Assembly: GCA_032718475.1 (NCBI GenBank)
Contig: JAUCBJ010002694.1
Location: 1-42,101 of the forward strand
DNA from: Nemertoderma westbladi
Taxonomy: Eukaryota; Animalia; Xenacoelomorpha
DNA: 42,101 nt
Direction of reading: 5' to 3'
In this document: one piece after another, positions 1 to 28,229 of the stretch
How positions within the stretch are numbered: position 1 is the first letter of the stretch
How the letters are laid out: every line of letters starts with the position of its first letter
Notes under the pieces: model-generated
What the model saw: only the letters and a program-made list of their open reading frames with translations
Told to the model about the DNA's origin: nothing
The model's database searches: none
Made by a program: the position numbers and the translations under genes

Positions 1-118
1 CGACCTATTGGAGATGTGATTTCAAAGCAACCACTACACCAAGGTGGAACAGTAACGTTCGAATTTGTTCGTTAACGTTCGAATTTGTAAGACTCTGATT
101 TAAGACCTGAGACACTCC

Positions 119-770
119 CCACAGCCACAGCCACAGCCACAGCCACAGCCACAGCCACAGCCATAGCCACAGCCACAGCCACAGCCACAGCCACAGCCAC
201 AGCCACAACCACAGCCACAGCCACAACCACAGCCACAGCCACAACCACAGCCACAGCCACAGCCACAGCCACAGCCACAGCCACAGCCACAACCACAGCC
301 ACAGCCACAACCACAGCCACAACCACAACCACAGCCACAGCCACAGCCACAACCACAGCCCACAGCCACAGCCACAACCACAGCCACAGCCACAACCACA
401 GCCACAGCCACAGCCACAACCACAGCCACAGCCACAACCACAACCCACAGCCACAGCCACAACCACAGCCACAGCCACAGCCACAACCACAGCCACAGCC
501 ACAGCCACAGCCACAGCCACAGCCACAGCCACAGCCACAGCCACAGCCACAACCACAACCACAGCCACAACCACAGCCACAGCCACAACCACAGCCACAA
601 CCACAGCCACAGCCACAGCCACAGCCACAACCACAGCCACAACCACAGCCACAGCCACAACCACAGCCACAACCACAGCCACAGCCACAACCACAGCCAC
701 AGCCACAGCCACAACCACAGCCACAGCCACAGCCACAACCACAGCCACAACCACAGCCACAGCCACAGCC
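119..770. repeat. Hexamer microsatellite (ACAGCC/ACAACC)n, ~108 units
   Basis: Directly visible tandem repeat with two single-base C insertions near 361 and 445. Confidence 0.98.
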
Positions 771-773
771 ATT

Positions 774-847
774 GTTCCACCTTGGTGTAGTGGTTGCTTT
801 GAATTCACATCTCCAATAGGTCGTGGGTTCAATCCTCACATGGACCA
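774..847 (+). ncRNA. tRNA-like (Val-CAC-derived) Pol III unit in element arm
   Basis: 74 nt: A box TGGTGTAGTGG, TTCACA at the anticodon position, B box GGTTCAATCC, ends in CCA, TTTT shortly after. Anticodon stem pairs poorly, so not a functional tRNA. Confidence 0.6.
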
Positions 848-2594
848 GGGCAGTTTTCATTCGATCAGCAATAGGCCTAACTATACAAAATGTAGTATTA
901 TTGCCTAAGTAACCAATTCATAGCTACCATATGGTTTTTACTTTGAGACATTTCACCCTCTAGCAGCAGACTCGGATCTTCAGACTACTCTGTGACTCCG
1001 CAAAAAGATATAGCCTATATTGTAATAGATATCGAATGGGGGGTCAAAATTAAGTAATAATATATCTAAAAAAGTCTCAAACATCTTACCTCATGGCTCG
1101 CCCCTCAGAAATCTTAAGCAATATAGCTTCATATTTTTTAAGGAAAACTGGTAAACGAGATTTGTTACTTACGCATACCTCGCAGACTTGAGTAATTAAT
1201 TATACAGTAGGTTAGATCGTTTTGAGAGTAGGACCATTGGAAACAGCGCCTTCGAAAACCTCAGTACAAATAAAATTAATAAGATTAACAGGATATAGCT
1301 TGTTATAATAAAACTTAAATTATAATACAGTAGAACAATTAGGGTTGTAAATAAAAACAAATTCAATAAATTGAAGATAAACTGTATATAACTTATGTAT
1401 TAAAAGAGGGCCTTATTTAATTATGTGCGATCAGGCGCGCAGGTTTAAATTAATATATGCGCTCGCATATGCGGTAATTAATGGTTGTAGTTGGCCTATG
1501 TGCGATTGAGATGATGCTGGCGCGTAAGATGCAAACCGAAGGTTTCCAATCTTACATGATAACGAAGCTAAAGGCTATCAAGGCAACATACCAAGGCAGT
1601 CCCCACCCACAGCTGGAGGTTTGAATAATTTAAACTCTGTGGCAGGCCCCATTCACGCGTTGACGTACAGTATAGGATTCGAGGGGATTAGTCATACCAC
1701 ATCTAATAAGAGCCCAACGACCGCAGATTATTGATGGATGACTCAGGGCCAAACTGGTCCACTTTATTTTCGAGTGAGGGTAATTTATGTTTTGGGCCCC
1801 GTTCTCATCTTTATATTTAATTCTACCTTTACCTACTGTATGGCAAAAATAATACAAATGTATTGTATATTATATTGTATGGTTCCTATTGTGTTGTATA
1901 TTTCGTTTGTTATAGTACAATTTATTCATCTCGCGTCCCTATCTGATTGATTTGTGTCAAATTAAATTGCCTTTGGCAACATTATTTGATACAAATCGAT
2001 TGATTAAACAATTAATTAATTGTTTAATCGACCAATTAATTAATTGTTTAATTAATTAATGACCTACTTAACACCCAAGGTGTGAAGTTGGTCCAACTGT
2101 CGCCAAAGAGGGGTAACCATTACTACTCTGGTATTATACATTATATTACCTTTCATTTCATAACATATAAACGATTGAATATAACTACTTTTTTTTGTAT
2201 TACTATGTATAAAAACAGTGAAAAAGGATCTAATCTACTATTTTATGCGTCTCAGTACGATTAGAGGCTCTCATTGCACCACAATAAAACAACAAACATA
2301 GACAACAGGCTTAGACATAATCGTCAATCACAAAGTTTTTCCAATTTTATTCACCACATACAAGTAGTTTACAGTAACATAGATCTCATGGTTTACTTTT
2401 TACTGACTACAAGTTGTTAATCATGTAACATATTGCAAGTGTATAGGAATACTAAAGAATTTTACTCCTCACATTATAGACACAAAGTCAACCCACTGCT
2501 TGTAATTTTACAAATACAATTATTTACAAAATGTATTTATTCCATTTGAAATTTAATTAAAATTTAATATTTGATATATCTGACTCATGTAAAG

Positions 2595-2833: not shown

Positions 2834-3000
2834 ACTCATGTAAAGAACTTTAAAAATCATTCAAATAAACTGAAAATTTATCTTCATCAAAAGTTATGTA
2901 ATATATTTTGTTGAATTATCTCAATCATTACAGCTATACAGGTATTCTACAATATTATTCCATTTACGATTCAGTTATTATTTTATTATTATCGAGAATT

Positions 3001-4092
3001 ATGTATACCTTTACGATTATGGGTTTACTTACAAATATATATTTTTGCATTGGAAGACAACAGGCAATCTATGATGTTGCAGATGCTGTTGGCAACTTAG
3101 AATCAAAAATACACATGCAGATTATGACGCGCTATCAGGAAGTTATAGGAGGGCTAGATAAATCATTTGTGTACGAAATCCTTCATCCTTGTGATAAATT
3201 ACAAAATCTTACTCGGCAACGAGAACCGCTAAGTGTAGATGAGTATAACTTACGTTACGAAATCGTTGACAATAGGTTTTATGGCCTAAACGGTAAAATC
3301 CGTTGCAATATAGACAGGTTTAGAGTGAATAGCGAACATTATTCATACATGAATATAAAACCAACATCAAAAAACAGAAAGGAAAGACAACAAGAGTATT
3401 ACAAACTGCAAAAAGTCAGTGGGGAATTACATGACTATGGTCCATGGTTGGTGATCATGCGTTCACATACAGTCGGTAATGGTCATACGGAATTTGGACA
3501 TAATGTGTTTAATTCCAATTGGGAAGATTATGTTTATGGGTTTGGTGGAACATCAGGTAACTTCTGGCTAGGCCTTGAAAAAATTTGGCAGCTCAGTAGA
3601 GGCGGAGTTCAACTAAAGATTGACATGTGGTATAATGGGTCAGGGAGTGAGGCGCCTTATCTCAACCAACATATAGATAGGAATCGTAAAGGGATTTACC
3701 ATAACCAGTCAACCAATGCATTCGCTATATATGATGAATTCAGTGTGGGATCAGCTGCAACTAACTACACTCTTCATATACGAGGTTTTCACGGTACCGC
3801 AGGAGATGATCTTGTAGGATATGATTTAATGCAAGGGATGGATTATGCTGGGAACCAATTTTCTACAAAAGATAGACACAATTCTGGTGGGGTTCTAGAC
3901 TGTGCAAAACTTCTAAATGGTGCGGGGTGGTGGTACCCAACCTTCTCTAAGAAAGTATCGACTTGGTTTGGTTGCAGGCACCTCACCGGTCCGATTTCGA
4001 GTTTGCATGATTTCAGAAATGGTGCTCCATATTGGCTCCCCTACTCGTATGGCCAGAGTTTGTACGGAGTAGAGATGAAAATCAGAGTATAG
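3001..4092 (+). CDS. Secreted fibrinogen C-terminal domain protein (FReD; ficolin/tachylectin-5/angiopoietin-like), 363 aa, intronless
   Basis: FReD motifs GPWLVIMR, FNSNWEDYVYGFG, GNFWLGLEKI, YTLHIRGFHGTAGD, FSTKDRHN, GAGWWY, EMKIR. First ATG at 3001 gives a signal-peptide-like N-terminus (the track start at 2908 is TTG). AATAAA at 4206-4211. Confidence 0.92.
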   Translation: MYTFTIMGLLTNIYFCIGRQQAIYDVADAVGNLESKIHMQIMTRYQEVIGGLDKSFVYEILHPCDKLQNLTRQREPLSVDEYNLRYEIVDNRFYGLNGKIRCNIDRFRVNSEHYSYMNIKPTSKNRKERQQEYYKLQKVSGELHDYGPWLVIMRSHTVGNGHTEFGHNVFNSNWEDYVYGFGGTSGNFWLGLEKIWQLSRGGVQLKIDMWYNGSGSEAPYLNQHIDRNRKGIYHNQSTNAFAIYDEFSVGSAATNYTLHIRGFHGTAGDDLVGYDLMQGMDYAGNQFSTKDRHNSGGVLDCAKLLNGAGWWYPTFSKKVSTWFGCRHLTGPISSLHDFRNGAPYWLPYSYGQSLYGVEMKIRV

Positions 4093-5584
4093 TAATGAAT
4101 AACTGTAAGTAATATGATTTACACACATTTATATTATTAATATATTAGATACTACAGGTGATAAAATATTATATAATATCATAATATATTACTTTATTTT
4201 TTTGCAATAAAATTAATAACATGTATTACAAAATGTCGGTTAGCCATTAAACTATAATTTGCGAACAACATCCTTCCTTCAAGTCACAGAGTCACTATTT
4301 GTCAGTATTACTTACTGTACAATGCAAGTACAGTAGAAAAACAAATATACAGTACAAGTAGGCCACTATAATACTGGACTGGTTGAGGAAAGGGAATTGG
4401 TGTATAAGATTTCTTACGCAGATCCGGCAGTTAGTTCTGCAGTCCGTAGCTAAATTTGGTTGAAAAATTGAGTTGGAGATTTTAGGATTTTTGTATAGAA
4501 AAGACGTCTTTCTGCTGGAGTAGTTTAGACTAGAGAGATGTTAGATGGAATGAGTGAGAGAATGAGTAGCTAGAGTTTAAGATAAAGAGTATTCTCGGAG
4601 TACTAGAGGGCCCCTTTCTATTTGCGGCAGGCTGCTTCTAATGTTGGTTTTTGAGTTAACTACAAGAAGAAAGACATTTCTTAAAACAGTCCTCATGTCT
4701 GATATCCGATCGTATGAGCGTAAGCTCCAGGTATTTTTAGATAGATAATGGGTGGCTCCGAAAGTCTTGCATAAGGCGACGGCATGAGGCAGCATTGAAT
4801 AGTCTGCCCATGATTTGGAAGTCACATAGAATAATAAATCAGAATCTTAAGGGTGATCTAGTGCTCGATGATCCAAAAAATAGAAATTGTTTTTTATTGT
4901 CGTTTCTAGATCGCATTTTCATGCAGTTTTTTAAAAACTTTTCAGATTTTTCATATCTTTTTTGGTTCTCGAGATATTCGCAAATGTATGAGGTGTGGTT
5001 TGGTGCCAATTTCCCATTTTTAGCCAAAAGTTTGGGTTTGTTTCTTTTGTACCACTACAATATGTCTACTCACCCCCACACAATCAAAAACTATCTTCTT
5101 ATGTTATTACAGTATTAGCAGTAGTTGGTGGGAAATTTGAACTGCTATTTGGTAGATAGTCCATTTCTGTGTACTTGTCTGTGCATTTACTTGCCTACAG
5201 GCAGCCAGCAGCGGTAGGCTGTTGAACACAGTCTGACAACAGTAATAGGCAGATAGGAATAGTAGGCCTAATAGTTTTTAATGTTAGTAATAGTAACCAG
5301 CCAGCAGGTTTGGTCAGTCGGCGTTTATGTCCAGGGCAGCAGGGGGTGTCCGGCTGTGCAGGACTTAGCTTCAGATTGCCTATCTACAGTAGAAGTAACT
5401 ACAGTCAGTACCGGTACCAAGGCTACTATACTGTAGGCTAGGTCTAAATTTACTAAAAAATAATAATGCTTACAGTTGTAATAGTTGTAGTAATATAATA
5501 ATAATGTAATGTAAATATAATATAGTGGTTTCTTATAATATAATATACAATTTTTTTAAATTTTCCAATAAATGCATAAATGGG

Positions 5585-6927
5585 AAACACATTGCCACCA
5601 TCGCAAAGAAAGCCAATGGAATAACTGGCCTTATTGCTCGAACCTTTAAACATCTGGACAGTGTCACGCTAGTCAACTTATTCAAAGCCCTCGTGAGACC
5701 AATTCTAGAATATGCATCCCCAGTATGGTCGCCACACCGTGTAAATGAAATACGACTTTTGGAATCTGTCCAACGTCGGGTGACCAGACTATTTCCTAAT
5801 CTCCGTAACTTAGCCTATCCGGAAAGATTAAAGCGACTAGGTCTCCCGACCCTTGAGTATCGCCGTTATCGCGCCGACCTGATCCAGGTGTACCGTTACC
5901 TTGCGGGTATCGACAACGCTGACTGCAGCATGTTCGAACTTTCCACGACTGGTCTACGCGGCCACTCATTCAAGCTCCAGAAACCCCGTGCTCGGCTGAT
6001 GCAGAGAAACACGACATTCCACTTCCGAGTCATCGATCCCTGGAACTCGCTATGCAATGCCGTTGTAACCGCCCCCAACCTTAACTCTTTTAAAACCCGT
6101 TTGAACTCCCACTTTAAAGATTTCCCGCTTAAATTTACCCCATCATGGTGGTCCATGTAAAAGTAAAATATCTTCCATAGTAACTCTTAACTTTTTACTC
6201 TTTTTGCTTACTAACTTTTAATATATTTCTCACCTTAATTAAAACTTTTATCACCACTTTTTGACTTTTAAACTTTTTCTAACCTTAATTAAAACTTTAG
6301 ATTACCACTTTTTAACTTTTTAACTAACTTTTTCTTACCTCTATTAAAACTTTTTTATCACCATTTAATTATACACACACATTAGACCCCGTTAATATTT
6401 AATATCTCAATAACTAATTGACAAACTGCATTTATCTACTTTGATCCTATATAATCGACGTTTTTAACTATGTACATTTAATAGTTTTTACTCGCGGCTT
6501 TACTGTTCTTACTTAATTTAATTTTTAACTTTCTTTTAATTTTAACCAAATAATTAAATATAAGTTTTAAAAATGCAACATATAACTAAATCAAGTTTTT
6601 AAATATATAAATTTGTTCGTCCTTTTTGTGTAAACCATAATTTTATTTCACGTTCGACTTTGTGTAATTTAAGATATTTTTAAGCCCTACGCTCCACAGC
6701 CATAATTTACATTACTTTTCACATATTTTTTTTTAAGTATGATTTTATGCTACATACTTTCGTTTACATACCCTCTTATCAACATTAATTAGTGCTAGGT
6801 AGTAGTAGGTAAGGTACTTAATTTGTTTCAGTTTAAATATTTTGACAGTAGTTTTATATTATGTCTGCACAGGTGCAATAAGCTTCTGCTTCCTCCGCCT
6901 CATTATTAAACATTAAACATTAAACAT
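5585..6927 (+). mobile_element. 5'-truncated CR1-clade LINE: ORF2 C-terminus (stop at 6160) plus 3' UTR
   Basis: LVRPILEYASPVWSPH, LESVQRRVTR, ERLKRLGLPTLEYRR, LRGHSFKL, RVIDPWNSL are typical CR1 post-RT motifs. T-rich UTR ends in (ATTAAAC)x3 at ~6905-6927. Confidence 0.9.
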
Positions 6928-7696: not shown

Positions 7697-9267
7697 ACTT
7701 TCTTGAGATGTCTCCTAAAGGACACTGGCCTTGAAGATGCGGATAATCTCGCAAAATTTAAAATGGTCATAGGGAAGTTGTGGGTAGTGCAGTTTTGTAG
7801 ATAGGCCGGCACAACATTCATAATTCATCATTGCATTCTCATTGCATTTCGATTGGATTTTAAGGGTATTTTAAGTACCCCCCCCCCCCCCCCCCCCTCC
7901 CCTTAAGTGTATAGTAACAAATATCATTATCCTAAAGTAAAATATCATCCTAAATTCCAATGGAATAGTGCCATTTAATATTTGTTGTTTTTTTTGCAGG
8001 GTGTATTTTACCCATGCTCTGTCGGGGTCGACAAACACAATATAAAGAGTAACTGGATATAATCTCTAAGAAATTCTACATTGATCATTTTTATTGATTG
8101 TTGAATGGATGGTGAATTAATTGTTAAATTTTCGTGGTGAATTATTATTATACATGATGTTATTTATATACATGTTGTTGTTGTATGTTATAATATTTAC
8201 AGTATTTTCGTCTCTCCATGCCCAGTCACATCTCACATCACAACTTCCGACACCGCATGGGGTTTTGAAGTGATGTATTTGTATTCCCAAACTCATAGTA
8301 TCTGAGTTCTCAACCAACGCTCTAACATTTCCTTTAACACTCACTTTATATCTCTCTCTATATATACTGTATATACTGTATATCTATCTCTCATTATCAA
8401 GTACTGTAAGTGGCCCCAGGTTAAAGCGCGCTGCCACATGTTCATTCATATAACCACCCCCCTCTCGATATATTATACTGACATTATATTACATAATTAT
8501 TAATAATAATAACCCTTCACAACGCCATCAACCTCAAACAGAATTATTGAATCTCCCAATTAATTTGTTAGCCGTAGTATGCCCGTCGTGTGTTACATCA
8601 AGAATGCAAACCTCATTTTTATCGGCCTGACCCCCTCCATTCAGCATCTTGACCTCCTGTTATCACCTCGTGATGTAATAATTTATCATTATATACTTCA
8701 TTCGGAGCAATTTCGTCAGTCTTCCAATTTTTTCCACCGGTTGTCACAAATTGTTTTTACCGCTCGCTCGCTCTGCTCGCTCGCTCCCCCGTCCACTCGC
8801 TCAGTCGCTTGTTCGCCTTTTCATTCGTCCCCAATCGGTTTACTTTGCTAACACTTTATTTCTGCTGATATTTGTAACCACATATACTCGAAGTAAATGT
8901 TTCATTCATTTCCCCTCCCCTTATTTTATGATTATTTTTACTACGTTATCGAAATATATTATGTTATTTATTAGTGCTTTTATTGTCCACATTTCATTAT
9001 CATAACATTATCATAACTGCCCGTGATTTGTAAATACAAAAAGATAGAATGCGAGCTCGTTATTAAAGAAACTCAATTTTGCAACCGAAACCTCCCTTGA
9101 GTGTCCCAATGATAGACATGCGTATCGCAGTAGGCCTACCTGCAGTAGGAAGGAATATCGTATCGGCACATAGGTCTACTTATACTAGTTATAGAGTTAC
9201 AGTTACCTTCAGATGGTAGTCAGATGTGAAATAGCTGGTGTTTCAGGTTCTACATCTGCATGCAGTC

Positions 9268-9757
9268 ATGGAATGTGAGTTTTGCGCGAATTCTTCGTTT
9301 GATAATATCGCCGGGCTGTACTATTGTACGGAATGTAACTCACAGAGTCAGCATGTCAGAGAGGAGGCTGTAGAAGATACATTCAACCAGACGAGAGGCC
9401 ACCACATCGCAGAGGCCGGGGCCGGCCGTGCAAAGACAGCCCAGAAAGCCCGGACAAAGGAAGAAAGACTTAAAGTGAGGATGGGAGAACCTTGGTTAAC
9501 GATGGATGGCTTCCAGGCGATTCTTAAGTATACAACCGAGTTACTTATAAATACATTCGACTTCGATGCGAATGTTAAGGATCACGTTGGGTTTATGTGG
9601 TTTCGGTATTTGAAGGCGTGCAATTACGCCTTTACTAAGAATCCCGTTAAACCTCCGACATTACGGGATGAACTGAACGGAGTCAGCTCAGAGATGGAGC
9701 TGTACGATAAACTATGCAACCATAGCAAAGAAGGAACCGCTGTTAAACGGAAAGCAG
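9268..9757 (+). CDS. TAF1B: TAF1B/Rrn7 (RNA Pol I SL1 subunit B), exon 1
   Basis: N-terminal TFIIB-type zinc ribbon CEFC...GLYYCTEC, then the WLTMDGFQAILK...MWFRYLK block characteristic of TAF1B. Donor GCAG|GTATTT, phase 1. Confidence 0.85.
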
Positions 9758-10157
9758 GTATTTAGTAGTAGTAGTAGTAGTAGTAAGCCTAACAAACTCG
9801 GGCAGTCGGGCGTAGGCATATTTGTTATAAGTGAATTCACGTCAATATAGCTAGCAAAGATCATGTCACCCTTTTTTATGTTAGGCCTATAGGAATTGGT
9901 TTGGAGTACGAAACCACTAATAATTGTCATTTGCCATTATTTGTCTGGCCATAAGTGCATTTCTGCCCTACGATAAAAACTTTGCTAAAAACATTTTGTT
10001 AAGGACAATAGGGGTGATATGATTTATTATTAGTTTATTAAATTTTTGTCAATATTACCACAAGCATAGCGAACTTAAAGTACCTGAAATACAGTCCGTG
10101 TTGTTAAGGTAGCCTTTAGTATTGCATTTAATATACCCTGTACTACTTATGTTGTAG

Positions 10158-11782
10158 AGGATGATGTTCATGATGAAATGGTCACGGAAAACATCGACAA
10201 TCTTGACGACCTCAACATCGACGATTATAGCGATGGTGACAACGATGATACTTCGAGTTCGAGTGGCATGGAATTATCTCCTAGAATTCACGGACGAGTC
10301 GGTTGCGGCTACCGTTCCTATCGACGCAACGTTAGTGTAATCAGCCTCGACGTTATCCTAGTCATTCTCTACCTCGCTCTCAGAAACACCAGCAGCAACA
10401 TCGAGCTAGGGGACCTCGCGAGGTGGGCCTGTCTGGGACACCTCCCTTACTGGGACGCGGGAAGCCGTCTTCCACCCCAGATGAAACTCTCAATAAAGGG
10501 TGACACTTGGACCTTCTTCCCTAGGAAGCCGCCTAGTCTGATCTTGCTCTATTGGTTATCGGCGCGTCTCCAGATCCTAATGTCGCGATCCAAGAAGCTC
10601 ACCCTCCCGGACCCCCCGCTGCTCGCGCTTGTCGGTCGGTATTTGTCCGACTCGAATCTCCCCCGCGAGATTGCGACTGTCGTCGCTTCGATCCTGGACG
10701 GGTTGATGCGATGGCCGTGTAAGCGAACCGCGTGGAGGTTGATAGCTCCGCGGAAGTTCCAAGGGAAACCCGTGTTTATTGTGATCCGGGAAGCGTACGC
10801 GGCTGCGTTGATCGTGGTCGCTTGCAAACTCCTCTTTGTCGAGGCGAATGGAGATAGTGAGGAAGATGTTGTTGATAATGAGGGTGATATAGTGGGTGAT
10901 AGCGATCCTGCAGTGCCTGTTTCAAGCGGCACTGTGAATTATTGTGGCGAATTTGGCGACGGTAGTAGCGAAATGTCCGACAGTCCATCAACAGAGTGCT
11001 GCCCACCTAGTGATTCCCCCGACGAGACTACATTCCGGCTCTCCGATTGGTTCTCCTACATGCGTTTGTGGGTTGAGCGAACGCCTCGCGTCGCCGCGGA
11101 CTTTACGCTGCGCGGGAACCACGCGGACAACCCCAGCGAACTGTGCGCGGAATACAGACGGGCGTTGCTACCTCGCTACACATCGGAGCGACTAATCTCC
11201 GGACCCAGACAGGTTCTGCGCTACAATAAACCAGACCGAGTAGCCGCCAGACAGCACATAGCCGCAATGTTTAGTGATAAGACAAGTGATAAATATGTTA
11301 ACAGAACCTCCGAAGAACCAAGTTTATACTGCCTGTGGATGAAATATAACCCAACTCCTATATCTAACGAACCGGGGTCAACCAATAAATGTTTTATTTT
11401 CTCCAGCGTTTCCCCGTATATCGAGTCCCGAGTGAAGTCTCTCGGTCGATCAGAAAGCTCCACCACATCGTTGTATTCGGTAATGTCGTTCGTTAACCTT
11501 CCCGCAGGTAACAAGGTACCGATGCTGTCCATTGCTGAACCCAGTCGTATCCCGGGATATTTACAAATTCCGGAATCGGTTCGGTTACTCCTGGACTTAC
11601 TAAGCGAGATTAGCGGTCTCTCTGTTACAACTATTCTCTATTACGTACAGGACATCGAAGGGCAGATGTTCCGGAAGGAAGGAAAGGCTATTAGTGATGA
11701 TAGTGACAGTTCCGTTGATTACGACTCCACCGGAAGCCCTGAACCGGAATCCCTTACCTTGAACCGGAATCCCATACCTTGA
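10158..11782 (+). CDS. TAF1B: TAF1B/Rrn7, exon 2 (joined protein ~704 aa)
   Basis: Acceptor TTATGTTGTAG|AG joins in frame (G|AG GAT GAT) across a 400-bp GT-AG intron. LVILYLAL...LGDLARWACLGHLPY and EAYAAALIVVACKLLF match TAF1B cyclin-fold motifs. Confidence 0.85.
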
Positions 11783-12692
11783 GCCGGAATCCCTTACCTC
11801 GAACCGGAATCCCTAACCTTAAACCGGATTCCCTTACCTTGAACCGGAATCCCTTACCTTGAACCGGAATCCCTTACCATGAACCGGAATCCCTTACCAT
11901 GAACCGGAATCCCTTACCTTGAACCGGAATCCCTTACCCTGAACCGGAATCCCTTACCTTGAACCGGAATCCCTTACCATGAACCGGAATCCCTTACCTT
12001 GAACCGGAATCGCTTACTTTAAACCGGAATCCCTTACTATGAACCGGAATCCCTTACCTTGAACCGGAATCCCTTACCTTGAACCGGAATCCCTTACCTT
12101 GAACCGGAATCCCTTACCTTGAACCGGAATCGCTTACTTTGAACCGGAATCCCTTACCTTGAACCGGAATCCCTTACCTTGAACCGGAATCGCTTACTTT
12201 GAAAACCGGAATCCCTTACCTTGAACCGGAATCCCTTAACATGAACCGGAATCCCTTACCTTGAGCCGGAATCCCTTACCTCGAACCGGAATTCCTTACC
12301 ATGAACCGGAATCCCTAACCTTGAACCGGATTCCCTTACCTTGAACCGGAATCCCTTACCTTGAACCGGAATCCCTTACCTTGAACCGGAATACCTTACC
12401 TTGAACCGGAATCCCTTACCATGAACCGGAATCCCTTACCTTGAACCGGAATCGCTTACTTTGAACCAGAATCCCTTACCAAGAACCGGAAACCCTTAAC
12501 ATGAACCGGAATCCCTTACCTTGAACCGGAATCCCTTACCTTGAACAGGAATCGCTTACTTTGAACCGGAATCCCTTACCTTGAACCGGAATCCCTTACC
12601 TGAACCGGAATCGCTTACTTTGAACCGGAAGCCCTTACCTTGAACCGGAATCGCTTACTTTGAACCGGAATCCCTTACCTTGAACCAGAATC
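11741..12692. repeat. 20-bp minisatellite GAACCGGAATCCCTTACCTT, ~47 copies, overlapping the TAF1B stop codon
   Basis: Directly visible; units align in register with the 60-base lines. Confidence 0.97.
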
Positions 12693-13747
12693 ACACTATC
12701 TGATGTTCGACAAATCATTTGACGTTGAAGCAACCTTAACCTGCTTGGGGTTAAATAGGGAATTATTTAATATCAATACTATTTGACTGAGGCCGGTTTG
12801 TGTAATTATCCTTTACATGTTGTACAATGTTGTGCTAAATTGTTTATTATCATACACGGTAATACTGTACACGTGCAATATATAATTATTGAATATTTTC
12901 ATGTAATGTTATATGTATATTATGAAGTTTGTTGGTTTTATGTGTGTTACTGCGCTAATTTCTATCACAAGCTGAGTTTTTTTTGCCAATTTTGACCCGT
13001 GAAAATAAGTTTAAAACTTTTCTATTTCACTGTGACTTGTCTATTTTTTTAATTGTACGTTTAAATGAATGTAACACGCAATGATTCCGAAACCCCAGAC
13101 TTAATGATTGGCTCAATGATCATTGATAATTGAGTTTCTGTTCATTGTAACGTGGTTCATATTTTGTTTTGAAATTAGAAAATAACCATGACCTATATTA
13201 TAGTGTTATTCTCCGCCTCTGATGATACGGACAACGCAAATAGTTCTACTCACCGTCGATTACCAGACGGAGACGAATTTTTAGCCTTTCAATTTTTAAA
13301 AGCAATTTAAAATTTTGTCTTTCGTGAAATCTCACAATTCGTATCGAAAGTATCCATTCTCCATCACATTAGCATCAACATAGTATCTTATATCATTAGA
13401 AAGTTTACTTTACCAGGATTCTAAATTTAACAATGTCTGAATTCCATTGAGAAACATGTGATTTAATTACTTTCAAAGATTACAAGAATAATCGTTGTCT
13501 CCATTTATACCAAGGACTTCTAGAAGATAATATTTATTCAGGACGCGAAGCTCGCATACAATACAGTGTTAATTTTTTTTAGAGACCGTATATTTTCTAC
13601 AACCGAGCCATACCGAAGACTACTAAATACGCCACAGAGAGCCATATTTACGTATATTTACGTTAAGACCCCTAGATCCCTTCCTATAATAAATATTTAC
13701 GTAGGGACAGATTGAGATAGCAGAAAGATTATATGAGATATGAGTTA

Positions 13748-16700
13748 CAAACAGATCGGATAAAAAGATCGGACAGACAAACAGATCGGACAAAGAGATC
13801 AGACAGACAAACACATCGGACAAAGAGATCAGACAGACAAACAGATCGGACAAAGAGATCACACAGATCGGACAAAGAGATCAGACAGACAAACAGATCG
13901 GACAGAGTGATCAGACAGACAAACAGATCGGACAAAGAGATCAGACAGACAAACAGATCAGACTAAGGGATCAGACAGACAAACAAATCGGGCAAAGGGA
14001 TCAGACAGACAAACAGATCGGACAAAGAGATCAGACATACAAACAGATCGGACAATGAGATCAGACAGACAAACAGATCGGACAAAGAGGTCAGACTGAC
14101 ATACAGATCGGACAAAGAGATCAGACAGACAAACAGATCGGACAAAGGGATCAGACAGGCAAACAGATCCTATAAAGGGGTCAGACAGACAAACAGAGCG
14201 GACAAAGGGATCAGACAAACAAACATATCGGACAAATGGATCAGACTGACATACAGATCGGACAAAGAGATCAGACAGACAAACAGATCGGACAAAGGGA
14301 TCATACAGACAAATAGATCGGACAAAGGGATCAGACCGACAAACAGATCGGACAAAGGATCAGACAGACAAACAGATCGGACAGACAAACAGATCAGACA
14401 AAGGGATCAGACAGGCAACCAATTCCTACAAAGGGATCAGACAGACAAACAGATCGGACAAAGAGATCAGACATACAAACAGATCGGACAAAGAGATCAA
14501 ACAGACAAACAGATCGGATAAAGAGATCAGACAGACAATCAGATCGGACAAAGAGATCAGACAGACAAACAGATCGGACAAAGAGATCAGACAGACAAAC
14601 AGATCGGACAAAGAGATCATACAGACAAACAGATCAGACAAAGGGATCAGACAGGCAAACAAATCGGACAAAGGGATCAGACTGACAAACAGATCGGACA
14701 AAGAGATCAGACATACAAACAGATCGGACAAAGAGATCAAACAGACAAACAGATCGGACAAAGAGATCAGACAGACAAACAGATCGGACAAAGAGATCAG
14801 ACAGGCAAACAGATCGGGCAAAGAGATCAGACAGACAAACAGATCGGACAAATGGATCAGACAGACAAACAGATCGGATAAAGGGATCAGAGAGACAAAC
14901 AGAGCGGACAAAGAGATCAGACAGATAAACAGATCGGACAAAGGGATCAGACAGACAAACAAATCGGACAAAGAGATCAGACATACAAACAGATCGGACA
15001 AAGGGATCAGACAGACAAACAGATCCTATAAAGGGATCAGACAGACAAACAGATCGGACAAAGGGATCAGACAGACAAACATATCGGACAAATGGATCAG
15101 ACAGACAAACAGATCGGACAAAGGGATCAGATAGACAAACAGCGGACAAAGGGATCAGACAGACAAACAGATCGGACAAAGGGATCAGACAGAAAAACAT
15201 ATCGGACAAAGAGATCAGACATACAAACAGAGCGGACAAAGGGATCAGACAGACAAACAAATCGGACAAAGGGATCAGACAGACAAACATATCGGACAAA
15301 GGGATCAGACAGACAAACATATCGGACAAAGGGGTCAGACAGACAAACAGAGCGGACAAAGGGATCAGACAGACAAACAGATCGGACAAAGGGATCAGAC
15401 AGACAAACAGATCTGACAAAGGGATCAGACAGACAAACAGCTCGGACAAAGGGATCAGACAGAAAAACAGATCGGACAAAGAGATCAGACAGATAAAGAG
15501 ATCGGACAAAGGGATCAGACAGACAAACAAATCGGACAAAGGGATCAGACAGACAAACAGAGCGGACAAAGGGGTCAGACAGACAAACAGAGCGGACAAA
15601 GGGATCAGACAGACAAACAGAGCGGACAAAGGGGTCAGACAGACAAACAGAGCGGACAAAGGGATCAGACAGACAAACAGAGCGGACAAAGGGGTCAGAC
15701 AGACAAACAGAGCGGACAAAGGGGTCAGACAGACAAACAGAGCGGACAAAGGGATCAGACAGACAAACAGAGCGGACAAAGGGGTCAGACAGACAAACAG
15801 ATCGGACAAAGGGATCAGACAGACAAACAGATCGGACAAAGGGATCAGACAGACAAACAGATCGGACAAAGGGATCAGACAGACAAACAGATCGGACAAA
15901 GGGATCAGACAGACAAACAGATCGGACAAAGAGATCAGACAGACAAACAGCTCGGGCAAAGGGATCAGACAGAAAAACAGATCGGACAAAGAGATCAGAC
16001 AGATAAACAGATCGGACAAAGGGATCAGACAGACAAACAAATCGGACAAAGGGGTCAGACAGACAAACATAGCGGACAAAGGGATCAGACAGACAAACAG
16101 AGCGGACAAAGGGGTCAGACAGACAAACAGATCGGACAATGAGATCAGACAGACAAACAGATCGGACAAAGAGATCAGACTGACATACAGATCGGACAAA
16201 GGGATCAGACAGACAAACAAATCGGACAAAGAGATCAGACATACAAACAGAGCGGACAAAGGGATCAGGCAGACAAACAAATCGGACAAAGGGATCAGAC
16301 AGACAAACATATCGGACAAAGGGATCAGACAGACAAACAAATCGGACAAAGAGATCAGACATACAAACAGAGCGGACAAAGGGATCAGACAGACAAACAG
16401 AGCGGACAAAGGGGTCAGACAGACAAACAGAGCGGACAAATGGATCAGACAGACAAACAGATCGGACAAAGGGGTCAGACAGACAAACAGAGCGGACAAA
16501 GGGGTCAGACAGACAAACAGATCGGACAAAGGGATCAGACAGACAAACAAATCGGACAAAGGGATCAGACAGACAAACATATCGGACAAAGAGATCAGAC
16601 AGACAAACAGATCGGACAAAGGGATCAGATAGACAAACAGAGCGGACAAAGGGGTCAGACAGACAAACAGAGCGGACAAAGGGATCAGACAGACAAACAG

Positions 16701-17870
16701 AACGGACAAAGGGGTCAGACAGACAAACAGAGCGGACAAAGGGATCAGACAGACAAACAGATCGGACAAAGGGGTCAGACAGACAAACAGAGCGGACAAA
16801 GGGATCAGACAGACAAACAAATCGGACAAAGGGATCAGACAGACAAACATATCGGACAAAGGGATCAGACAGACAAACAAATCGGACAAAGAGATCAGAC
16901 ATACAAACAGAGCGGACAAAGGGATCAGACAGACAAACAGAGCGGACAAAGGGGTCAGACAGACAAACAGAGCGGACAAAGGGATCAGACAGACAAACAG
17001 ATCGGACAAAGGGGTCAGACAGACAAACAGAGCGGACAAAGGGGTCAGACAGACAAACAGAGCGGACAAAGGGATCAGACAGACAAACAAATCGGACAAA
17101 GGGATCAGACAGACAAACATATCGGACAAAGAGATCAGACAGACAAACAGATCGGACAAAGGGATCAGATAGACAAACAGAGCGGACAAAGGGGTCAGAC
17201 AGACAAACAGATCGGATAAAGAGATCAGACAGACAAACAGATCGGACAAAGAGATCAGACAGATAAACAGATCGGACAAAGGGATCAGACAGACAAACGA
17301 ATCGGACAAAGGGATCAGACAGACAAACATATCGGACAAAGAGATCAGACAGACAAACAGATCGGACAAAGGGATCAGATAGACAAACAGAGCGGACTAA
17401 GGGGTCAGACAGACAAACAGATCGGACAAAGGGATCAGACAGACAAACAGATCGGACAAAGAGATCAGACAGATAGACAGATCGGACAAAGGGATCAGAC
17501 AGACAAACAAATCGGACAAAGAGATCAGACATACAAACAGAGCGGACAAAGGGATCAGACAGACAAACAGAGCGGACAAAGGGGTCAGACAGACAAACAG
17601 ATCGGACAAATGGATCAGACAGACAAACATATCGGACAAATGGATCAGACAGACAAACAGATCGGACAGAGTGATCAGACAGACAAACAGATCGGACAAA
17701 GAGATCAGACAGACAAACAGATCGGACAAATGGATCAGACAGACAAACAGATCGGGCAAAGGGATCAGACAGACAAACAGATCGGACAAAGGGATCAGAC
17801 AGACAAACAGATCGGACAAAGGGATCAGACAGACAAACAGATCGGACAAAGAGATCAGACAGACAAACAC
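13748..17870. repeat. 30-bp satellite AAACAGATCGGACAAAG(G/A)GATCAGACAGAC, ~137 copies
   Basis: Directly visible. The unit contains two related halves (AAACAGATCGGAC and AAAGGGATCAGAC) plus AGAC. Confidence 0.98.
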
Positions 17871-17977
17871 AAATAATCACAACGCAGACAGTCAAATAAC
17901 AAATATATAATGTAGATAGGACAATTTGATAATGCTCACCATAGCGAAAAATATCAACCGGCCCTATTGGGGCTCGA

Positions 17978-18021
17978 ACCCGGTACCTAGGTTTCAAACT
18001 TCTGGTTATCATCAGCCGGGT
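17978..18021 (-). ncRNA. Minimal type I hammerhead ribozyme (left-arm copy), within tRNA-like unit 17958-18043
   Basis: Exact reverse complement of 18334-18377. Confidence 0.75.
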
Positions 18022-18309
18022 GACTACTGAGCTACCAGACCGGATGAATATTTCGCTGTGGAGTGGAGTGGGAGATCATATTTAGGCCAACTAATCACTC
18101 AAAGGAAAGTACAAGTTCGTTATTCCCGTGCTCTGCCAGCCTGGGCTAGGCATTACGGGGTTACAGTGGTTTCTACAACACTGTATAATAGTTATTCTTT
18201 GAGGCATGGTTGCCATTTCTGGCAGAGCACGGGAATAACGAACTTGTACTTTCCTTTGAGTGATTAGTTGGCCTAAATATGATCTCCCACTCCACAGCGA
18301 AATATTCAT

Positions 18310-18408
18310 CCGGTCTGGTAGCTCAGTACACTCACCCGGCTGATGATAACCAGAAGTTTGAAACCTAGGTACCGGGTTCGAGCCCCAATAGGGCCGGTTG
18401 ATATTTTT
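18310..18408 (+). ncRNA. tRNA-like Pol III transcription unit containing the hammerhead
   Basis: CCGGTCT/GGGCCGG acceptor-like stem, A box TAGCTCAGT (18319), B box GGTTCGAGCCC (18375-18385), TTTTT terminator at 18404-18408. Confidence 0.7.
18334..18377 (+). ncRNA. Minimal type I hammerhead ribozyme (right-arm copy)
   Basis: ACCCGG (stem I) - CTGATGA - T AAC cagaa GTT T (stem II) - GAAA - palindromic ACCTAGGT helix III - GTA cleavage triplet (after 18371) - CCGGGT (stem I'). Confidence 0.78.
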
Positions 18409-19247
18409 CGCTATGGAGAGCATTATCATATTGTCCTATCTACATTATATATTTAATTCACCGTCACTCACCCCACAACAATTCATTTATTATTATTAAA
18501 TAACAAATATGAGACTAATGAAATTAATTTCCAACTAATGAAATTAATTTACCGTTGCCATATCAACAGTTAATTAATGGAGCCGTGAAACAAAATAATC
18601 GCCTCATGGATGGCCGTATTTTGAACCGATTATGTTCGAATGTGCCAGTAATTTACAATTTTTAAAAAACATACCTTTTTTTCTTGAATTTAAATGATAA
18701 ATTATTTTCCATAGCATTTTAAATATAAATATTTATCCAGAAAAGTGTTCTGTTCAGAATGCATTTTTAGCTAGAGCCTGGGAATAGTACCTGGAATACT
18801 GATTTCGAGAATAAATTTTAAAGTAAAACTACAACGGTCAATATTCCTCTAAATACGAATCGCTTTGTATTAAGCGTTGATGGGTGAGTACAAAACAAAG
18901 ACTCAAGACCTGTACAAAACACATGTGTAAACTTTCGTTTGGTTCCCCCAACACGCCTCTGTAACCTGCTCCTTTAAATGGCAATGGGACCTAACGCGAC
19001 TTTACCTCTTTGTTTTGTACAGATGGTATTGTGTCTTTGCATTGTACCCACACCCCCCCCCCCCCCCCCCCAAATTTAGCGTTTCGAACATGACCATTAG
19101 TCCGTGGTGCTATTATACTACAGTGAGTTGTTCTAACACGGAGCAATACCGCCTTGCTTCAAGTATCTCAGTAAAATATTAATACTAGGCCTTACCGGTA
19201 GCTGATGTGATCGTGATCTCCAGATGTAGCATATTAAAATATAGGCC

Positions 19248-20290
19248 TAGGGTGAGTGAGGGAGACTTGACTTTAGGGGAGACTTGATTTTTTTTAATAA
19301 CTCAAAAACTATTGTAAATTATTTAACAATACCACACAAAAATGTGTAAAATACATGTTGGCTACACCCGCGCAACAATGTTTTATTACCTTTTGGTTAT
19401 TTTTTGTTTTATTGTCAATAAACGTTTTCTGGGTTCAAAAGTAAATTTTTGCCCTTTACAACGAATGAAAATTCGCATCCTTATTTTACGTGTATGTTAA
19501 TTGTAATTCACAACATGTGTTGACTAATTATTGCACTCTCCTGCCATATATTGTTTTCCAGTTTTGGTTCAGCCGGTTTGAAATTATACCAATTAATATA
19601 AAAAAAGCCCATGTGGGGGAGACATGACGCTCGAGTGTGAGGGAGACTTGAACCCGCCAATGCTGACGTCTACCTAGAGATACACCCACGTAGAGAACCA
19701 TTACACCAGAGCACTCCAACTAGTTGATTGGCACTTACACCGACGCAGCTATCAATGGATGGCTATGCTTCATGCAGTAGGAGTAGCCCCTCTCTAGACT
19801 AAACCAAACCCAGCCAAGCCAACCAACAACTCTTCCTTCCCTCTTTGCAATGTGGTAGCCCGCCAACTTGGTGATTGACAACTTAAACAAGATGCCGCTA
19901 CGTCAGAAAGCGGCACACATCAATAGAATTACAGGAAAACAATTAAAATGGTCCTGGATTGAAAATTATACAAGATGTTTATTATTAAAAAGTACCTTTC
20001 CGCGTTAAATTTTATTGCGGTTTTAATGAACTATTATTTATTTATTTCTTGTTAGGAGAACCATGTGAACGACCACCTAAATTTGTATAAATTTGGGATA
20101 ATAATTTACAAATTAATAATCGTATTTTTTGCATTTTTGCTGCTCTACTATAAAATAGACATGTTGAACATGTAATTATTACACTTCTTATGCATTTTTG
20201 AACGAATTTACAAGAATGTGAGGTGGGGTTCAAGTCTCCCACCCTAGGTGTCAAGTCTCCCCCCATTGAGGGAGACTTGACGCTTTTTCG
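19248..20290. mobile_element. Degenerate non-autonomous DNA transposon (pogo/Tc1-mariner-like MITE); right boundary uncertain
   Basis: Starts after TA. Repeated GGGAGACTTGA motifs at ~19260, 19277, 19617, 19641 and 20270, with inverted TCAAGTCTCCC at ~20230 and 20250. Confidence 0.5.
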
Positions 20291-21269: not shown

Positions 21270-21289
21270 CAGGCGCGAATCCAGAGGGT

Positions 21290-21329
<40 letters not shown>

Positions 21330-21352: not shown

Positions 21353-23319
21353 ATAAGTCATGACCAGACCAGACCAAACCAACCCTGTATAGACGATAGA
21401 GCCTGAAAAGTGTCAGGCGTATAATATCAAATATATAGTCAAAAGAGGTTGATATTAGATATCAGAAAATAGCCTTCAGATTTGGAATCTCCATTAAATT
21501 CGCCACACCACCACAGGTGGAGATCATAAAAAAATATGGATCCAAAATATATAGCGCTAACACCCCATCCTCCCTTACCAGTAGTAGGGTCTTGGCCGGC
21601 TCTGCGACAGTTGGACCCCACTGACACCCATTGGGTGTCATATGACACCCAATTATCACCCTATGGGTGTCATTGGGTGTCATTGGCGCCAGACTGTCTG
21701 GGTGACACCTCCCAATTAGGCTAATTAGACCCTAATTGACAGGTGTCATCAATTAATTAGTACAATTAAACCCTAACAGGTGTCATATGACTCCTAATTA
21801 GGGTTTAATTGATTATCCTAATTAATCAGACTGATTAGCGCCCTGACACACAATGGGTCAATCAGTGTTGTCCAACTGTCGCAGAGCCGGCTCAAGAGGG
21901 TGTCATAAGTGACACCGCAGCTCTTTTATTCATTAATACTTATTTATTTATATTTAATTTTAATTAATTGTACTTTATTTTACTTTATTTATTCATTTGT
22001 ACTTTATTTTATATTAATTATTCATTTGTACTTTATGGGTATACAGCTCCCTTACTGGTAACTAATTACTCTTATCTATATCCAGACAGCTTTTTCGTTG
22101 ACCTTTGACCTTTGACCCCTCAATTAGCTTTAACCAAGCAACAGCATATTAATGATAGTTGTATCCAAGCGCCCCTGCCCCCACCCCGTGACAGCTCTGA
22201 TTACTAATTACTCGTACATATATCCAACCGCCTGCAGTTCCATAGTCTGCCGCTAGAGGGCGTATTATCTGAAAATTAACATCTTCTCTAACTTTGTTAT
22301 TTTCAATTTAACTATTTATTTCTACCTAATTTTAATTAATTATTTGTATTCTATTTTACTTTATTTATTCATTTGTACTTTATTTTAAATTAATTAATTG
22401 TATTACTTTTATTTTATATATTGATTTCTATTTTTAGATTAATTAGTTTTTATATTACTTACCGCTACTAAATGAGATCATTATTGGAAGCATCTAACCA
22501 TAGACTTGCAGCCTTATTTAGCCATAGGGTATACAGCTCCCCTACTGGTAACTATTTTGGAGTTAATGTTAGCAAAGGGCCTAAACTTAAGACAAGCTAT
22601 CGCCTAGGTTACCAGTTACGCATGAATGAGCAATTTATCGGGGCCCCTTTTAAAATTCTTTGTGCTGCGTCAGGATTGCCTCATTTAAGGAAGCCGCATC
22701 CCTATCGATAATCTAATTATGGTATCGCTAACCATTTTCAGTATACTGTATAATTAAATAGGGCCCTCTTTTAATACATAAGTTTATATATACAGTTTAT
22801 CTTCAATTTAATTTGTTTTTATTTACAACCCTAATTGTTCTACTGTAATTTATGTTTTATAATATCAAGCTATATCCGGTTAATCCATATTAATTTACTT
22901 TGTACTGAGGTTATCGAGGGCGCTCTTTCCAATGGTCCTATTCTCAAAACGATCTAACCCACTGTATAATTAATTACTTAAGACTGCGAGGTATGCGTAA
23001 TTAACACATCTCATTTACCAGTTTTCCTTAAAAACTATGAAGTTATATTGCTTAAGAGTTCTAAGGGGCGAGCCATGAGGCTAGATGTTTGAGGCTTATT
23101 TAGATATATTATTACTTAATTTGACCCCCCAATCGGCATCTACTATGGCATAGGCTATATCTTTTGCAGAGTCACAGAGTAGTATGAAGTTCCCCAGTCT
23201 GCCGCTAGAGGGCTTAATGTCTCAAAGTGAAAACCATACGGTAGCCATGAATTGGTTACTAGGCAATAATACTGCATTTTGCAACGTTAGACCTATTGCT
23301 GACCGAACGAAAACTGCCC

Positions 23320-23393
23320 TGGTTCATGCAGGGGTCGAACCCATGACATACGAGAGATGTGAATTCTACGCAACCACTACACCAAGGTGGAAC
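23320..23393 (-). ncRNA. tRNA-like unit in left arm, facing outward
   Basis: Inverted homolog of 26782-26855 with A box, B box GGTTCGACCCC and terminal CCA. Confidence 0.6.
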
Positions 23394-23456
23394 AGTAACC
23401 TTCGAATTTGTTCGTTGACGTTCGAATTTGTAAGACTCTCATTTAAGACTTGACAC

Positions 23457-23676
23457 AGACTATGCCTCACCGAGGCATAGACTATGACTCACTGAGGCAT
23501 AGACTATGCCTCACTGAGGCATAGACTATGCCTCACTGAGGCACTGAGGCATAGACTATGACTCACTGAGGCATAGACTATGCCTCACTGAGGCATAGAC
23601 TATGCCTCACTGAGGCATAGACTATGCCTCACTGAGGCATAGACTATGCCTCACTGAGGCATAGACTATGCCTCAC
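23457..23676. repeat. 22-bp quasi-palindromic satellite AGACTATGCCTCACTGAGGCAT, ~10 copies
   Basis: Directly visible; TATGCCTCA-C-TGAGGCATA dyad. Confidence 0.96.
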
Positions 23677-24067
23677 CATGGATGGGCTTTACCACTGTAC
23701 TCGCATCTGCTGTCTCATTGGCTGCTCGATGCCTCAGATTAAGGGTCTAAGACCTTCAAGCTGGTCATTTGCTTAGTTTTATAATTAGAAGGTCGTGAGT
23801 TCGAACCCTAGAAGAGCATTTTTCTTTTTCCTAGCTCTTGGTTAACTCTAGTATACACTCTAGCTTTGACTCTCCCGCCGGCTATAGTTATAGTATGCAA
23901 CCTTGGGAGTTAATGTGAGTAAAGACCAAGAGATTAGACTTCAGGCTCCCTCTATTGGTTCATTCTTCTTAACTTTATATAATAACTCAACCCGTATTTA
24001 AAGTTTTGAAAATTATGACTTAGTCGACTAATTTTCCAAAGTATATTATAAAAACATATAATTTCTT

Positions 24068-24228
24068 GAATAAATAGACCTAATAGTAATAAATATTGTG
24101 GGGTAAATACATTTATAATACTAATATAATTATTATGGATAAATAGTCCTAATACTATTATAATTGTTATGGATAAATAGTCCTAATACTAATATAATTG
24201 TTTTGGATAAATAGCCCTAACACTATTA
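24068..24228. repeat. Degenerate ~34-bp AT-rich tandem repeat (GGATAAATAGTCCTAATACTA...), 3-5 copies, downstream of the zinc-finger ORF
   Basis: GGATAAATAG(T/C)CCTAA at ~24137, 24171 and 24205, with weaker copies upstream. Confidence 0.75.
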
Positions 24229-24253
24229 TGAAAGGAACTCAAACAAACAAATG

Positions 24254-25306
24254 TCAATAGCGTCGTCCTGCGCGGGCATTTACTGAACGAGAGTTTTTTA
24301 TCATAGGTCTTCGAAAATTAGTAAAAGCTGGTTGATTTACTTTACTTTCATCTTCCTCGTTACCCAACTGTTTCTTAATTTTATTCAATTGTTCATTAAT
24401 TTTCAGTAATTTACTTTTATTTCCCAGAACCTGTCTTAATATCTCTTCTCTATTTTCCTCATTTTCTTCCATTTGTTTAATAAATTTCCGCATTTGATTT
24501 TTGTTTCCTAATATTTGTCTCAATATCTCTTCTTTATTTTCATCATTCTCTTCTAAATGTTTAATAAATTTCTGTAATTTAATTTTACTTCCTAGAACTT
24601 GGGTCAATGTCGCCTCTTTATTTTCTTCATTTTCCTTCAAATGTTTAATAATTTTCCGCAATTGATTCTTATTTCCAAGTAATTGCCTCTTTATTTCCTC
24701 ATTATCATCATTTTCATCCTCTTCTCCACTTTCCTGATCTTCACTTTCTTCACCCTCTTTCTGACCTTCACTTTCTTCATCCTCTTCCCCGCCTTCACTT
24801 TCTTCATCGTCTTCCTGTTCTTCACTTTCTTCATCCTCTTCCTGTTCTTCACTTTCTTCATTCTCTTCCTGACCTTCGCTATCTTCACCCTCTTCTTGAC
24901 CTTCACTTTCTTCATCATCATCCTGATCTTCACTTTCTTCGTTCTCAACCTCACTCTCTTCAACTTCATCCTGACCCTCACTATTTTCATTCTCCATCTC
25001 ATCATCCTCTTCTTCTCCATCTTTCTCACTCAAATTTTCCTCATTTTCTAGGGGTAACTGTTTTTGTATCCCTTTCAAAATATTCATAACTTTATGAAAT
25101 TTACTTTCCATTGTCTGTTTTATATTTAATATATCACGCTCATCTCTCTTTTTCTTTTCATCTTCACTAAAAATATCTTCGGATTTTTTAAATTTTTTTG
25201 GTAATGGAGCCATTAGTTTTTCCTTTCCATGTGTTTCCATATGACGAGATAAATTGTCTTGTCTCATTTCTTTATTACAGACCAAACAAGTTTCATGTCT
25301 ATGCAT
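24254..25306 (-). CDS. 350-aa protein: N-terminal C2H2-like zinc finger, acidic 10-aa repeats, 28-aa coiled-coil repeats; sole cargo ORF of the element
   Basis: CLVC-x11-H-x3-H, basic PKKFKK, EESEGQEE-type repeats, about four EEILRQ.LGNK..L.K.IK.LEENEENK repeats. Uninterrupted and intronless, A at -3, first ATG after a predicted Inr. Confidence 0.8.
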   Translation of the reverse strand: MHRHETCLVCNKEMRQDNLSRHMETHGKEKLMAPLPKKFKKSEDIFSEDEKKKRDERDILNIKQTMESKFHKVMNILKGIQKQLPLENEENLSEKDGEEEDDEMENENSEGQDEVEESEVENEESEDQDDDEESEGQEEGEDSEGQEENEESEEQEEDEESEEQEDDEESEGGEEDEESEGQKEGEESEDQESGEEDENDDNEEIKRQLLGNKNQLRKIIKHLKENEENKEATLTQVLGSKIKLQKFIKHLEENDENKEEILRQILGNKNQMRKFIKQMEENEENREEILRQVLGNKSKLLKINEQLNKIKKQLGNEEDESKVNQPAFTNFRRPMIKNSRSVNARAGRRY

Positions 25307-25418
25307 TATATAGCAATGTCAATTGAAAATATTGAATTTTAGCTAAATGATTTTACAAAATTTTAAATAAATTAAACTTTTATGAAAATAAATAAAACTT
25401 TTTAATATAAAACTTAGA

Positions 25419-25544
25419 GAATGACTGGGAATGCGTTGAACGGGGGTTATTATAGAGGGAGGCTAGAATGGATTATCCAATCAGAGTGCGAGGGTGAGTT
25501 AGGCAGCCAATCAGGACTCGAGGGAGGAAAGTTAAACAGCCAAT
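25419..25544 (-). promoter_or_regulatory. Pol II promoter for the zinc-finger ORF: 3x CCAAT, TATA, Inr
   Basis: CCAAT at 25477, 25507 and 25540 (30 and 33 bp apart, in NF-Y-like CCAATCAG/CCAATGAG context). Minus-strand TATAATAA at 25454-25447 and TCATTC Inr at 25424-25419, about 32 bp apart. Confidence 0.65.
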
Positions 25545-25760
25545 GAGAGAGCAGATGCGAGTACAGGGGTAAAGTGCCCGCCCATCCATGGTGAGATAAC
25601 GTCACACTAACTCTCAAGGATAGTTATACTCACCATTCAAATATCCCTCGCAAACCAGATTCCCCCCAGCATCTAACGTATTCCACTTCAATGCAAAATA
25701 TATAGAGCTTTAGTTGGATTTGAACCTGTGCTTGTAAACTTTTTTGTGCTCGTATATTGA

Positions 25761-26718: not shown

Positions 26719-26781
26719 GTGTCAAGTCTTAAATGAGAGTCTTACAAATTCGAACGTCAACGAGCAAATTCGAAGGTTACT

Positions 26782-28130: not shown

Positions 28131-28229
28131 CCGGCCAAGACCCTACTACTAGTTATGTATATTTCACTATTAACCATTGATTATTATTATTTTTATAGCG
28201 CATCTAAGAAATACTTTATTAGAAACCAC

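Follow-up and report, generated by a model that had tools for sequence, protein, structure and literature searches.

Within the stretch of Nemertoderma westbladi DNA analysed here (hereafter the window; 42,101 nucleotides of contig JAUCBJ010002694.1, assembly GCA_032718475.1), we found two unrelated tandem repeats behind the same conserved border. They probably belong to two related non-coding foldback elements, non-autonomous derivatives of Maverick/Polinton transposons, whose arm subfamilies independently gained different arrays at the same inner border. The two-repeat pattern is real and more than a single-locus accident, and is best read as subfamily-specific array gain. A border motif of about 63 bp is followed by an (ACAGCC)n array in copy A (1–118) and by a 22-bp palindromic array in copies C and D:

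51–118, plus strand: border motif A, with alleles G57 and A74; 58/63 identical to 23395–23457.
119–770 (or 771), plus strand: (ACAGCC)n array with ACAACC variants; 108.5 copies by TRF, about 108 units.
23394–23456, plus strand: border motif C, about 63 bp.
23457–23676, plus strand: 22-bp palindromic array C, 220 bp, 10 units.
25761–26718, minus strand: 22-bp palindromic array D, 958 bp, with 39 spacers counted and 12 TGASTCA words.
26719–26868: border motif D (26719–26781) and head D (26782–26868, plus strand).

The borders are homologous. Window positions 2–114 aligned to 26830–26718 with 90% identity (E = 5e-38), and positions 11–114 aligned to 23354–23457 with 92% identity (E = 2e-37). The motif itself was identical at 58 of 63 positions between A and C, at 57 of 63 between A and D, and at 62 of 63 between C and D. 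The arrays behind these borders are dissimilar. The 22-mer and its reverse complement agree at 20 of 22 positions, and we rejected a common origin with the hexamer, because the two have at most three consecutive bases in common and reach only 38% identity at the best phase, against a shuffle mean of 31% (equalled in 10 of 500 shuffles). An earlier, sequence-only reading of this DNA had proposed that unrelated tandem repeats follow one conserved border, and these results bear it out. Its count of about 10 units for array C also stood, but for array D we counted 39 spacers and not its 43 or so, which is the length divided by 22, because some units are 30–38 bp long. The hexamer array comprises 79 CCACAG, 28 CCACAA and 1 CCATAG units, the two main variants occurring in irregular order.

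The junctions between motif and array are closely aligned in the three copies. The ungapped motif alignment stops at position 114, and the hexamers begin 5 bp further in. From the start of the array to the first base of the tRNA-like head, the distance is 68 bp in A and 63 bp in both C and D. AGAC repeats run across border motif C into the first 22-mer, at 13- and then 11-bp spacing. Between subfamilies, the motif (92%, 58/63) and the arm body (91%, 501/552, B versus C) are equally conserved (Fisher P = 1.0). A scan for the border motif gave no matches in metagenome contigs and none in viral contigs.

The hexamer array is flanked by inverted arms on both sides, and we refer to this structure as element 1:

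1–50, minus strand: arm A, the 5′ part of a tRNA-derived SINE-like head, running off the window start; A box at 31–41; 50/51 identical to inverted 773–823.
771–773: right junction, 3 bp separating the hexamer array from the 5′ end of head B, as read in the assembled sequence.
774–1424, plus strand: arm B, head and arm body; 87.5% identical to 23394–22750.
774–860: head B, with an A box at 783–793, a one-mismatch B box at 826 and T4 after 81 nt.
1946–2127: right end of element 1, with short hairpins, the subterminal word GCGACAGTT in common with element 2, and ACTACT at 2122–2127.

Arm B (773–2127), which was absent from the sequence-only reading, is the inverted partner of A on the other side of the array. 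It has no border motif, and the interior of element 1 is also missing, with hexamers filling the entire centre; what lies beyond the hexamer array shows no homology with the inner flanks of the C and D arrays. Since arms flank the array on both sides with no other interior, element 1 is a foldback whose interior consists wholly of hexamers. A and B are identical at 50 of 51 positions, whereas A matches C and D at only 43–45 of 51, and element 1 is therefore a separate subfamily. Arm B aligns with arm C over 650 bp (87.5% identity). An uninterrupted open reading frame (ORF) with a fibrinogen domain (2902–4092) begins about 770 bp beyond the right end of element 1.

Element 2 spans 21580–28150 and has AGTAGT/ACTACT ends, subterminal hairpins of about 300 bp, and mosaic arms that each carry one 22-mer array:

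21580–21897, plus strand: left end, with the AGTAGT terminus (21580–21585) and a subterminal hairpin of about 300 bp.
23308–23393, minus strand: head C, with an A box at 23374–23384 and a B box at 23331–23341.
23798–23808, plus strand: inner B-box match near array C, unaccompanied by an A box within 60 bp.
24254–25306, minus strand: intact orphan ORF of 350 amino acids from ATG; N-terminal C2H2-like finger, and repeats of 27 bp (acidic) and 84 bp.
25477–25760: inner flank of array D, with three CCAAT words, a block in common with 23672–23724, and a segment of about 165 bp with a B box at 25716–25726 (minus strand).
27850–28150: right end, with a near-perfect hairpin of about 290 bp and the ACTACT terminus (28145–28150).

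The predicted DNA fold of the left-end hairpin had an energy of −117 kcal/mol (60 base shuffles: mean −37, s.d. 4), and the GCGACAGTT word is common to all three element ends in the window. Within the subterminal hairpins (21590–21897 and 27850–28140), we also observed an identical 65-bp block in direct orientation (21673–21737 and 27912–27976), an arrangement that we take to resemble the flip/flop forms of hairpin-ended replicons. A 44-base run, nearly all G, lies 250 bp to the left of the element (21286–21329). The inverted arms are 75–95% alike, depending on the block, and differ by an indel of about 720 bp. The segment of about 165 bp (25596–25760) between array D and the shared inner block is absent from arm C (23672–23677), where CTCAC on both sides suggests a microhomology deletion. 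The orphan ORF is preceded by the three CCAAT words. Searches of Pfam and PHROGs revealed no transposase or viral core domain in it, and PHROGs gave no relatives. One search for relatives gave eight weak matches (E = 1.6e-6 to 9e-4), three on the zinc-finger stretch and five on repetitive or acidic stretches; further relative searches gave none. The best ESM Atlas match (0.87), which we treat as a lead only, was with C2H2-type clusters.

Only the outer border of the arrays is homologous between elements 1 and 2, so the repeat slot proposed in the sequence-only reading is one-sided: unrelated arrays do occur at one outer border, but the inner flank that a two-sided slot would need is missing from element 1.

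We compared contigs from public sequencing runs with window positions 1–140 at 80% likeness, which gave 254, 479, 310 and 13 contigs from runs X1, X2, X3 and X4, respectively. These runs represent at most three samples, X2 and X3 being from one sample, and the assembly may itself have been built from the best run. X4 has only 8% of the words, and a further run, X5, has next to none. Depths are uncalibrated sums over overlapping contigs and are not copy numbers. The junction between motif and hexamers was covered by contigs in three of the four runs (X1–X3). Depth over hexamer positions 121–135 was 0.8–2.7 thousand in X1–X3 and 0 in X4; at positions 126–130 it was 1,230, 2,050, 1,237 and 0 in X1–X4, equivalent to 10%, 2.1%, 1.8% and 0% of motif depth. 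Hexamer depth dropped towards position 140, as expected of motif-anchored contigs. Loose ends at position 114 that ran into the 22-mer were found in 4 (X1), 7 (X2) and 5 (X3) of the contigs listed. The 22-mer was the main continuation after the motif, and the hexamer was a minority one. The G57 allele was likewise in the minority, with depths of 1,510, 5,626 and 2,159 in X1–X3 (6–17% of depth), and a contig carrying the exact A-type motif (54–111) had a depth of 830 in X1, compared with 20–72 for five X1 contigs with four to six differences.

These depths suggest that the hexamer junction marks a multi-copy minority subfamily, at about 2–10% of motif depth, whose members we infer to number between roughly ten and a few tens. 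Because the depth of the hexamer junction is of the same order as that of the minority G57/A74 alleles, repeat type appears to follow arm subfamily, which speaks against the freely interchangeable slot content that the sequence-only reading had envisaged. That reading had also allowed that nearly all other copies might carry the 22-mer, with the hexamer confined to a deletion junction in the window or lacking support from reads. This is largely not what we found: the left junction was covered in X1–X3, at depths far above those of private-variant contigs, although the 22-mer is indeed the main continuation. Only two repeat types occurred among the contig pieces listed (32 of 1,058), and others are possible, including among 53 loose-end rows outside the list. 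In X4, two contigs matched the window up to position 118 and then entered non-array DNA. This run showed neither array, a weak result given its 13 contigs and 8% of words, and it seems that X4, a diverged run, holds array-free arms.

The same contigs bear on whether the hexamer array could have arisen at this locus alone, by a single insertion or by a join made in assembly. Among the listed contigs, none runs across the whole stretch or reaches the 31-letter bridging bar: the single one that crosses the junction (X3, 75–140) has only 22 letters of the array. The right junction is known from the assembly sequence. Such an origin is nevertheless very improbable, given the depth anchored at the left junction in three runs from two samples, the depth of the exact A-type motif contig, and the irregular order of two unit variants within the array.

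The head was described in the sequence-only reading as a tRNA-like gene. Heads B, C and D carry internal A and B boxes, as judged by matches to box patterns. At default settings, ARAGORN called no tRNA genes over the window; with relaxed settings it called head D, at a threshold that gave 22 calls across the window. Rfam gave no tRNA match to the heads at E ≤ 10, with just sub-threshold hairpin matches, and folding of the heads revealed no cloverleaf (z = −2.3, −0.1 and −0.6). We therefore rejected a functional tRNA gene. The summed contig depth of the head was 199–479 thousand in X1–X3, compared with 12–96 thousand for the motif (a ratio of 3.6–16), and the ratio was 165 in X4. At position 50, moreover, 28, 24, 29 and 2 contigs left the alignment in X1–X4 (agreement 0.40–0.65), and the loose ends at positions 50–51 ran into unrelated DNA. 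The high depth of the head relative to the motif and these unrelated exits thus identify the 'tRNA-like gene' as a SINE-like repeat that is dispersed and in most of its copies lacks the border motif.

Heads B and C are 84% identical (74/88), lower than the 91% of the arm body (P = 0.06), and at the sequence level we saw no sign of special constraint on either the border motif or the head. The suggestion of a special tDNA-like insulator fared poorly: head depth exceeds motif depth 3.6–165-fold, the 5′ flanks of the head are unrelated, and its conservation does not surpass that of the arm.

The position of the right junction raises another possible origin for the hexamers. A broken element could have been repaired from a free SINE lying beside a genomic (ACAGCC)n tract, so that the array landed exactly at the 5′ end of the SINE. 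Consistent with this, 3 bp separate the junction from the 5′ end where 24–29 unrelated contigs per run exit in X1–X3, and donors would be plentiful, given the thousands-fold depth of the head. The near identity of heads A and B means that such a repair would require later homogenization of the arms, and we regard it as a doubtful alternative to independent array gain by subfamilies.

We found six exact B-box matches in the window, compared with 0.58 expected (0 of 100 shuffles). Two of the six flank the 22-mer arrays on the interior side, at distances of 122 and 35 bp, and each of the three arrays is bracketed by units with B boxes. Array D, moreover, lies with its 12 TGASTCA words upstream of the three CCAAT words and the orphan ORF; the TGASTCA and CCAAT words presumably resemble AP-1 and NF-Y sites, respectively. 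An exchangeable slot, in which the array serves as a cassette of functional binding sites between Pol III (TFIIIC) B-box elements, would account for these features and for the start of two unrelated arrays within 5 bp of the same position. Boundaries formed by B2 SINEs and TFIIIC on Alu have been published (PMC8136502 and PMC7014570). By contrast, the two inner B-box units have no A box and are mutually unrelated (we rejected their homology, as 119 of 200 shuffles scored as high), the 42 kb contain 12 B-box-like sites at a tolerance of one mismatch, and the head is a bulk repeat conserved no better than the arm. With element 1 lacking a homologous inner flank and only two repeat types among the pieces listed, a functional slot of this kind is distinctly improbable.

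Further A/B-box units of other SINE-like families occur at 2690–2835, 19620–19725 and 20227, and such boxes are therefore a common background in the window. A 550-bp palindrome at 17901–18454 consists of two inverted tRNA-SINE-like units with 88% likeness, and an exact B box is present in both.

Subfamily-specific gain would have proceeded as follows. A common ancestor may have captured a tRNA-derived SINE within its inverted repeat. Slippage or unequal exchange would have expanded AGAC-containing motif sequence in situ into the 22-mer array of the major subfamily, aided by the palindromy of the unit. In the minor (A/B) subfamily, the interior may have been replaced by a hexamer microsatellite through deletion or gap repair. 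An unseen helper, acting in trans on the AGTAGT ends that it recognizes, could then have copied both forms, with the arrays as likely passengers whose lengths drifted. A random deletion would predict neither the closeness of the right junction to the point where the SINE-like head naturally begins (its 5′ end, at most 3 bp away) nor the B boxes that flank all of the arrays. In a more far-reaching model, a Maverick-derived non-autonomous family with hairpin ends would have captured the SINE head as a recombination handle, repeatedly imported unrelated repeats at one border, kept them between Pol III B boxes and spread them genome-wide, in the manner of a virus-like satellite shuttle; we consider this unlikely.

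Elsewhere in the window, we observed Rrn7/TAF1B-like ORFs (9235–11782; gene 9235–12692), the long one of which (10088–11782) ends within a 20-bp tandem array of about 48 copies. There is also a 30-bp array of about 140 copies (13747–17869) and a 37-bp array of about 248 copies (31837–41046) with many GTAGTAG/CTAC words. Three segments (5510–6160, 28200–28900 and 29371–29826) look by eye like remnants of LINE reverse transcriptase, with no Pfam match in the two that were scanned.

The assignment to Mavericks was examined through ends and genes. The end motif 5′-(AGT)2//(ACT)2-3′ occurs at 21580–21585, 28145–28150 and 2122–2127, and this is the commonest Maverick end motif (PMC8097293). We found no target-site duplication at element 2, with k of 4–12 and the ends shifted by up to 4; the left end of element 1 lies beyond the window. 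None of 32 short frames (of 42 listed) had a Pfam match, and the main ORF had no domain of the Maverick core genes (protein-primed polymerase, integrase, ATPase, protease and capsids). No cognate transposase was found in the main ORF or in these 32 frames. With neither a target-site duplication nor a core domain, the Maverick link thus comes from the end motifs alone. We do not file the elements as Mavericks; most likely they work like a non-autonomous derivative.

Maverick/Polinton elements (PMC8097293 and bioRxiv 10.1101/2023.08.22.554363) share with the present elements (AGT)2//(ACT)2 ends and resemble them in having long terminal inverted repeats, about 50–1500 bp in Mavericks and mosaic in the arms here. 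Those elements are 13–25 kb long, with core genes and a target-site duplication of 5–8 bp, usually 6 bp, whereas element 2 is 6.6 kb long with neither feature detected. Alternative arrays in a Maverick derivative were not reported in the titles, starts of abstracts and few passages of the literature that we covered, although supplementary element tables could hold such cases. Tandem repeats carried and spread by transposons are already well known, also in the form of unrelated arrays between related flanks, and many further cases are tabulated in a review (PMC9659126).

Unrelated tandem repeats within related flanks occur in Cg_HINE group 2 of the oyster Crassostrea gigas and in Drosophila DINE-1 (PMC7492417). 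These are likewise non-autonomous, and the array type is tied there to its own set of flanks. They are Helentrons with a single central array between distinct left and right flanks, whereas in the window long inverted arms with AGTAGT ends carry the arrays at their inner end, and an inner flank is missing from element 1. The repeat units also differ in size, being 6 and 22 bp here and mostly 140–180 bp in Cg_HINE and DINE-1. The DTC84 miniature element (MITE) of Donax trunculus resembles our elements in its flanks, described as a 'cassette', in the palindrome within each repeat and in its variable copy number; it differs in being small, in having no more than five core repeats and in its AA target duplication (PMC3879986).

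The foldbacks Tetris (PMC4079207) and Galileo (PMC3573991) have long inverted arms with variable internal tandem repeats, as here. Rearranged copies and copies with two arms only are a further common trait, and their arrays have been proposed to come from arm sequence. Tetris has 8–10-bp target-site duplications and one repeat type, in contrast to element 2, for which no duplication was found. Unlike the descriptions of either foldback, the elements in the window have Maverick-like ends, subterminal hairpins of about 300 bp and a SINE-like head captured in the arms. The less ordinary aspect of this system is its carrier. If the family were confirmed genome-wide, Maverick derivatives would join the satellite carriers, and array gain could be mapped onto the arm tree.
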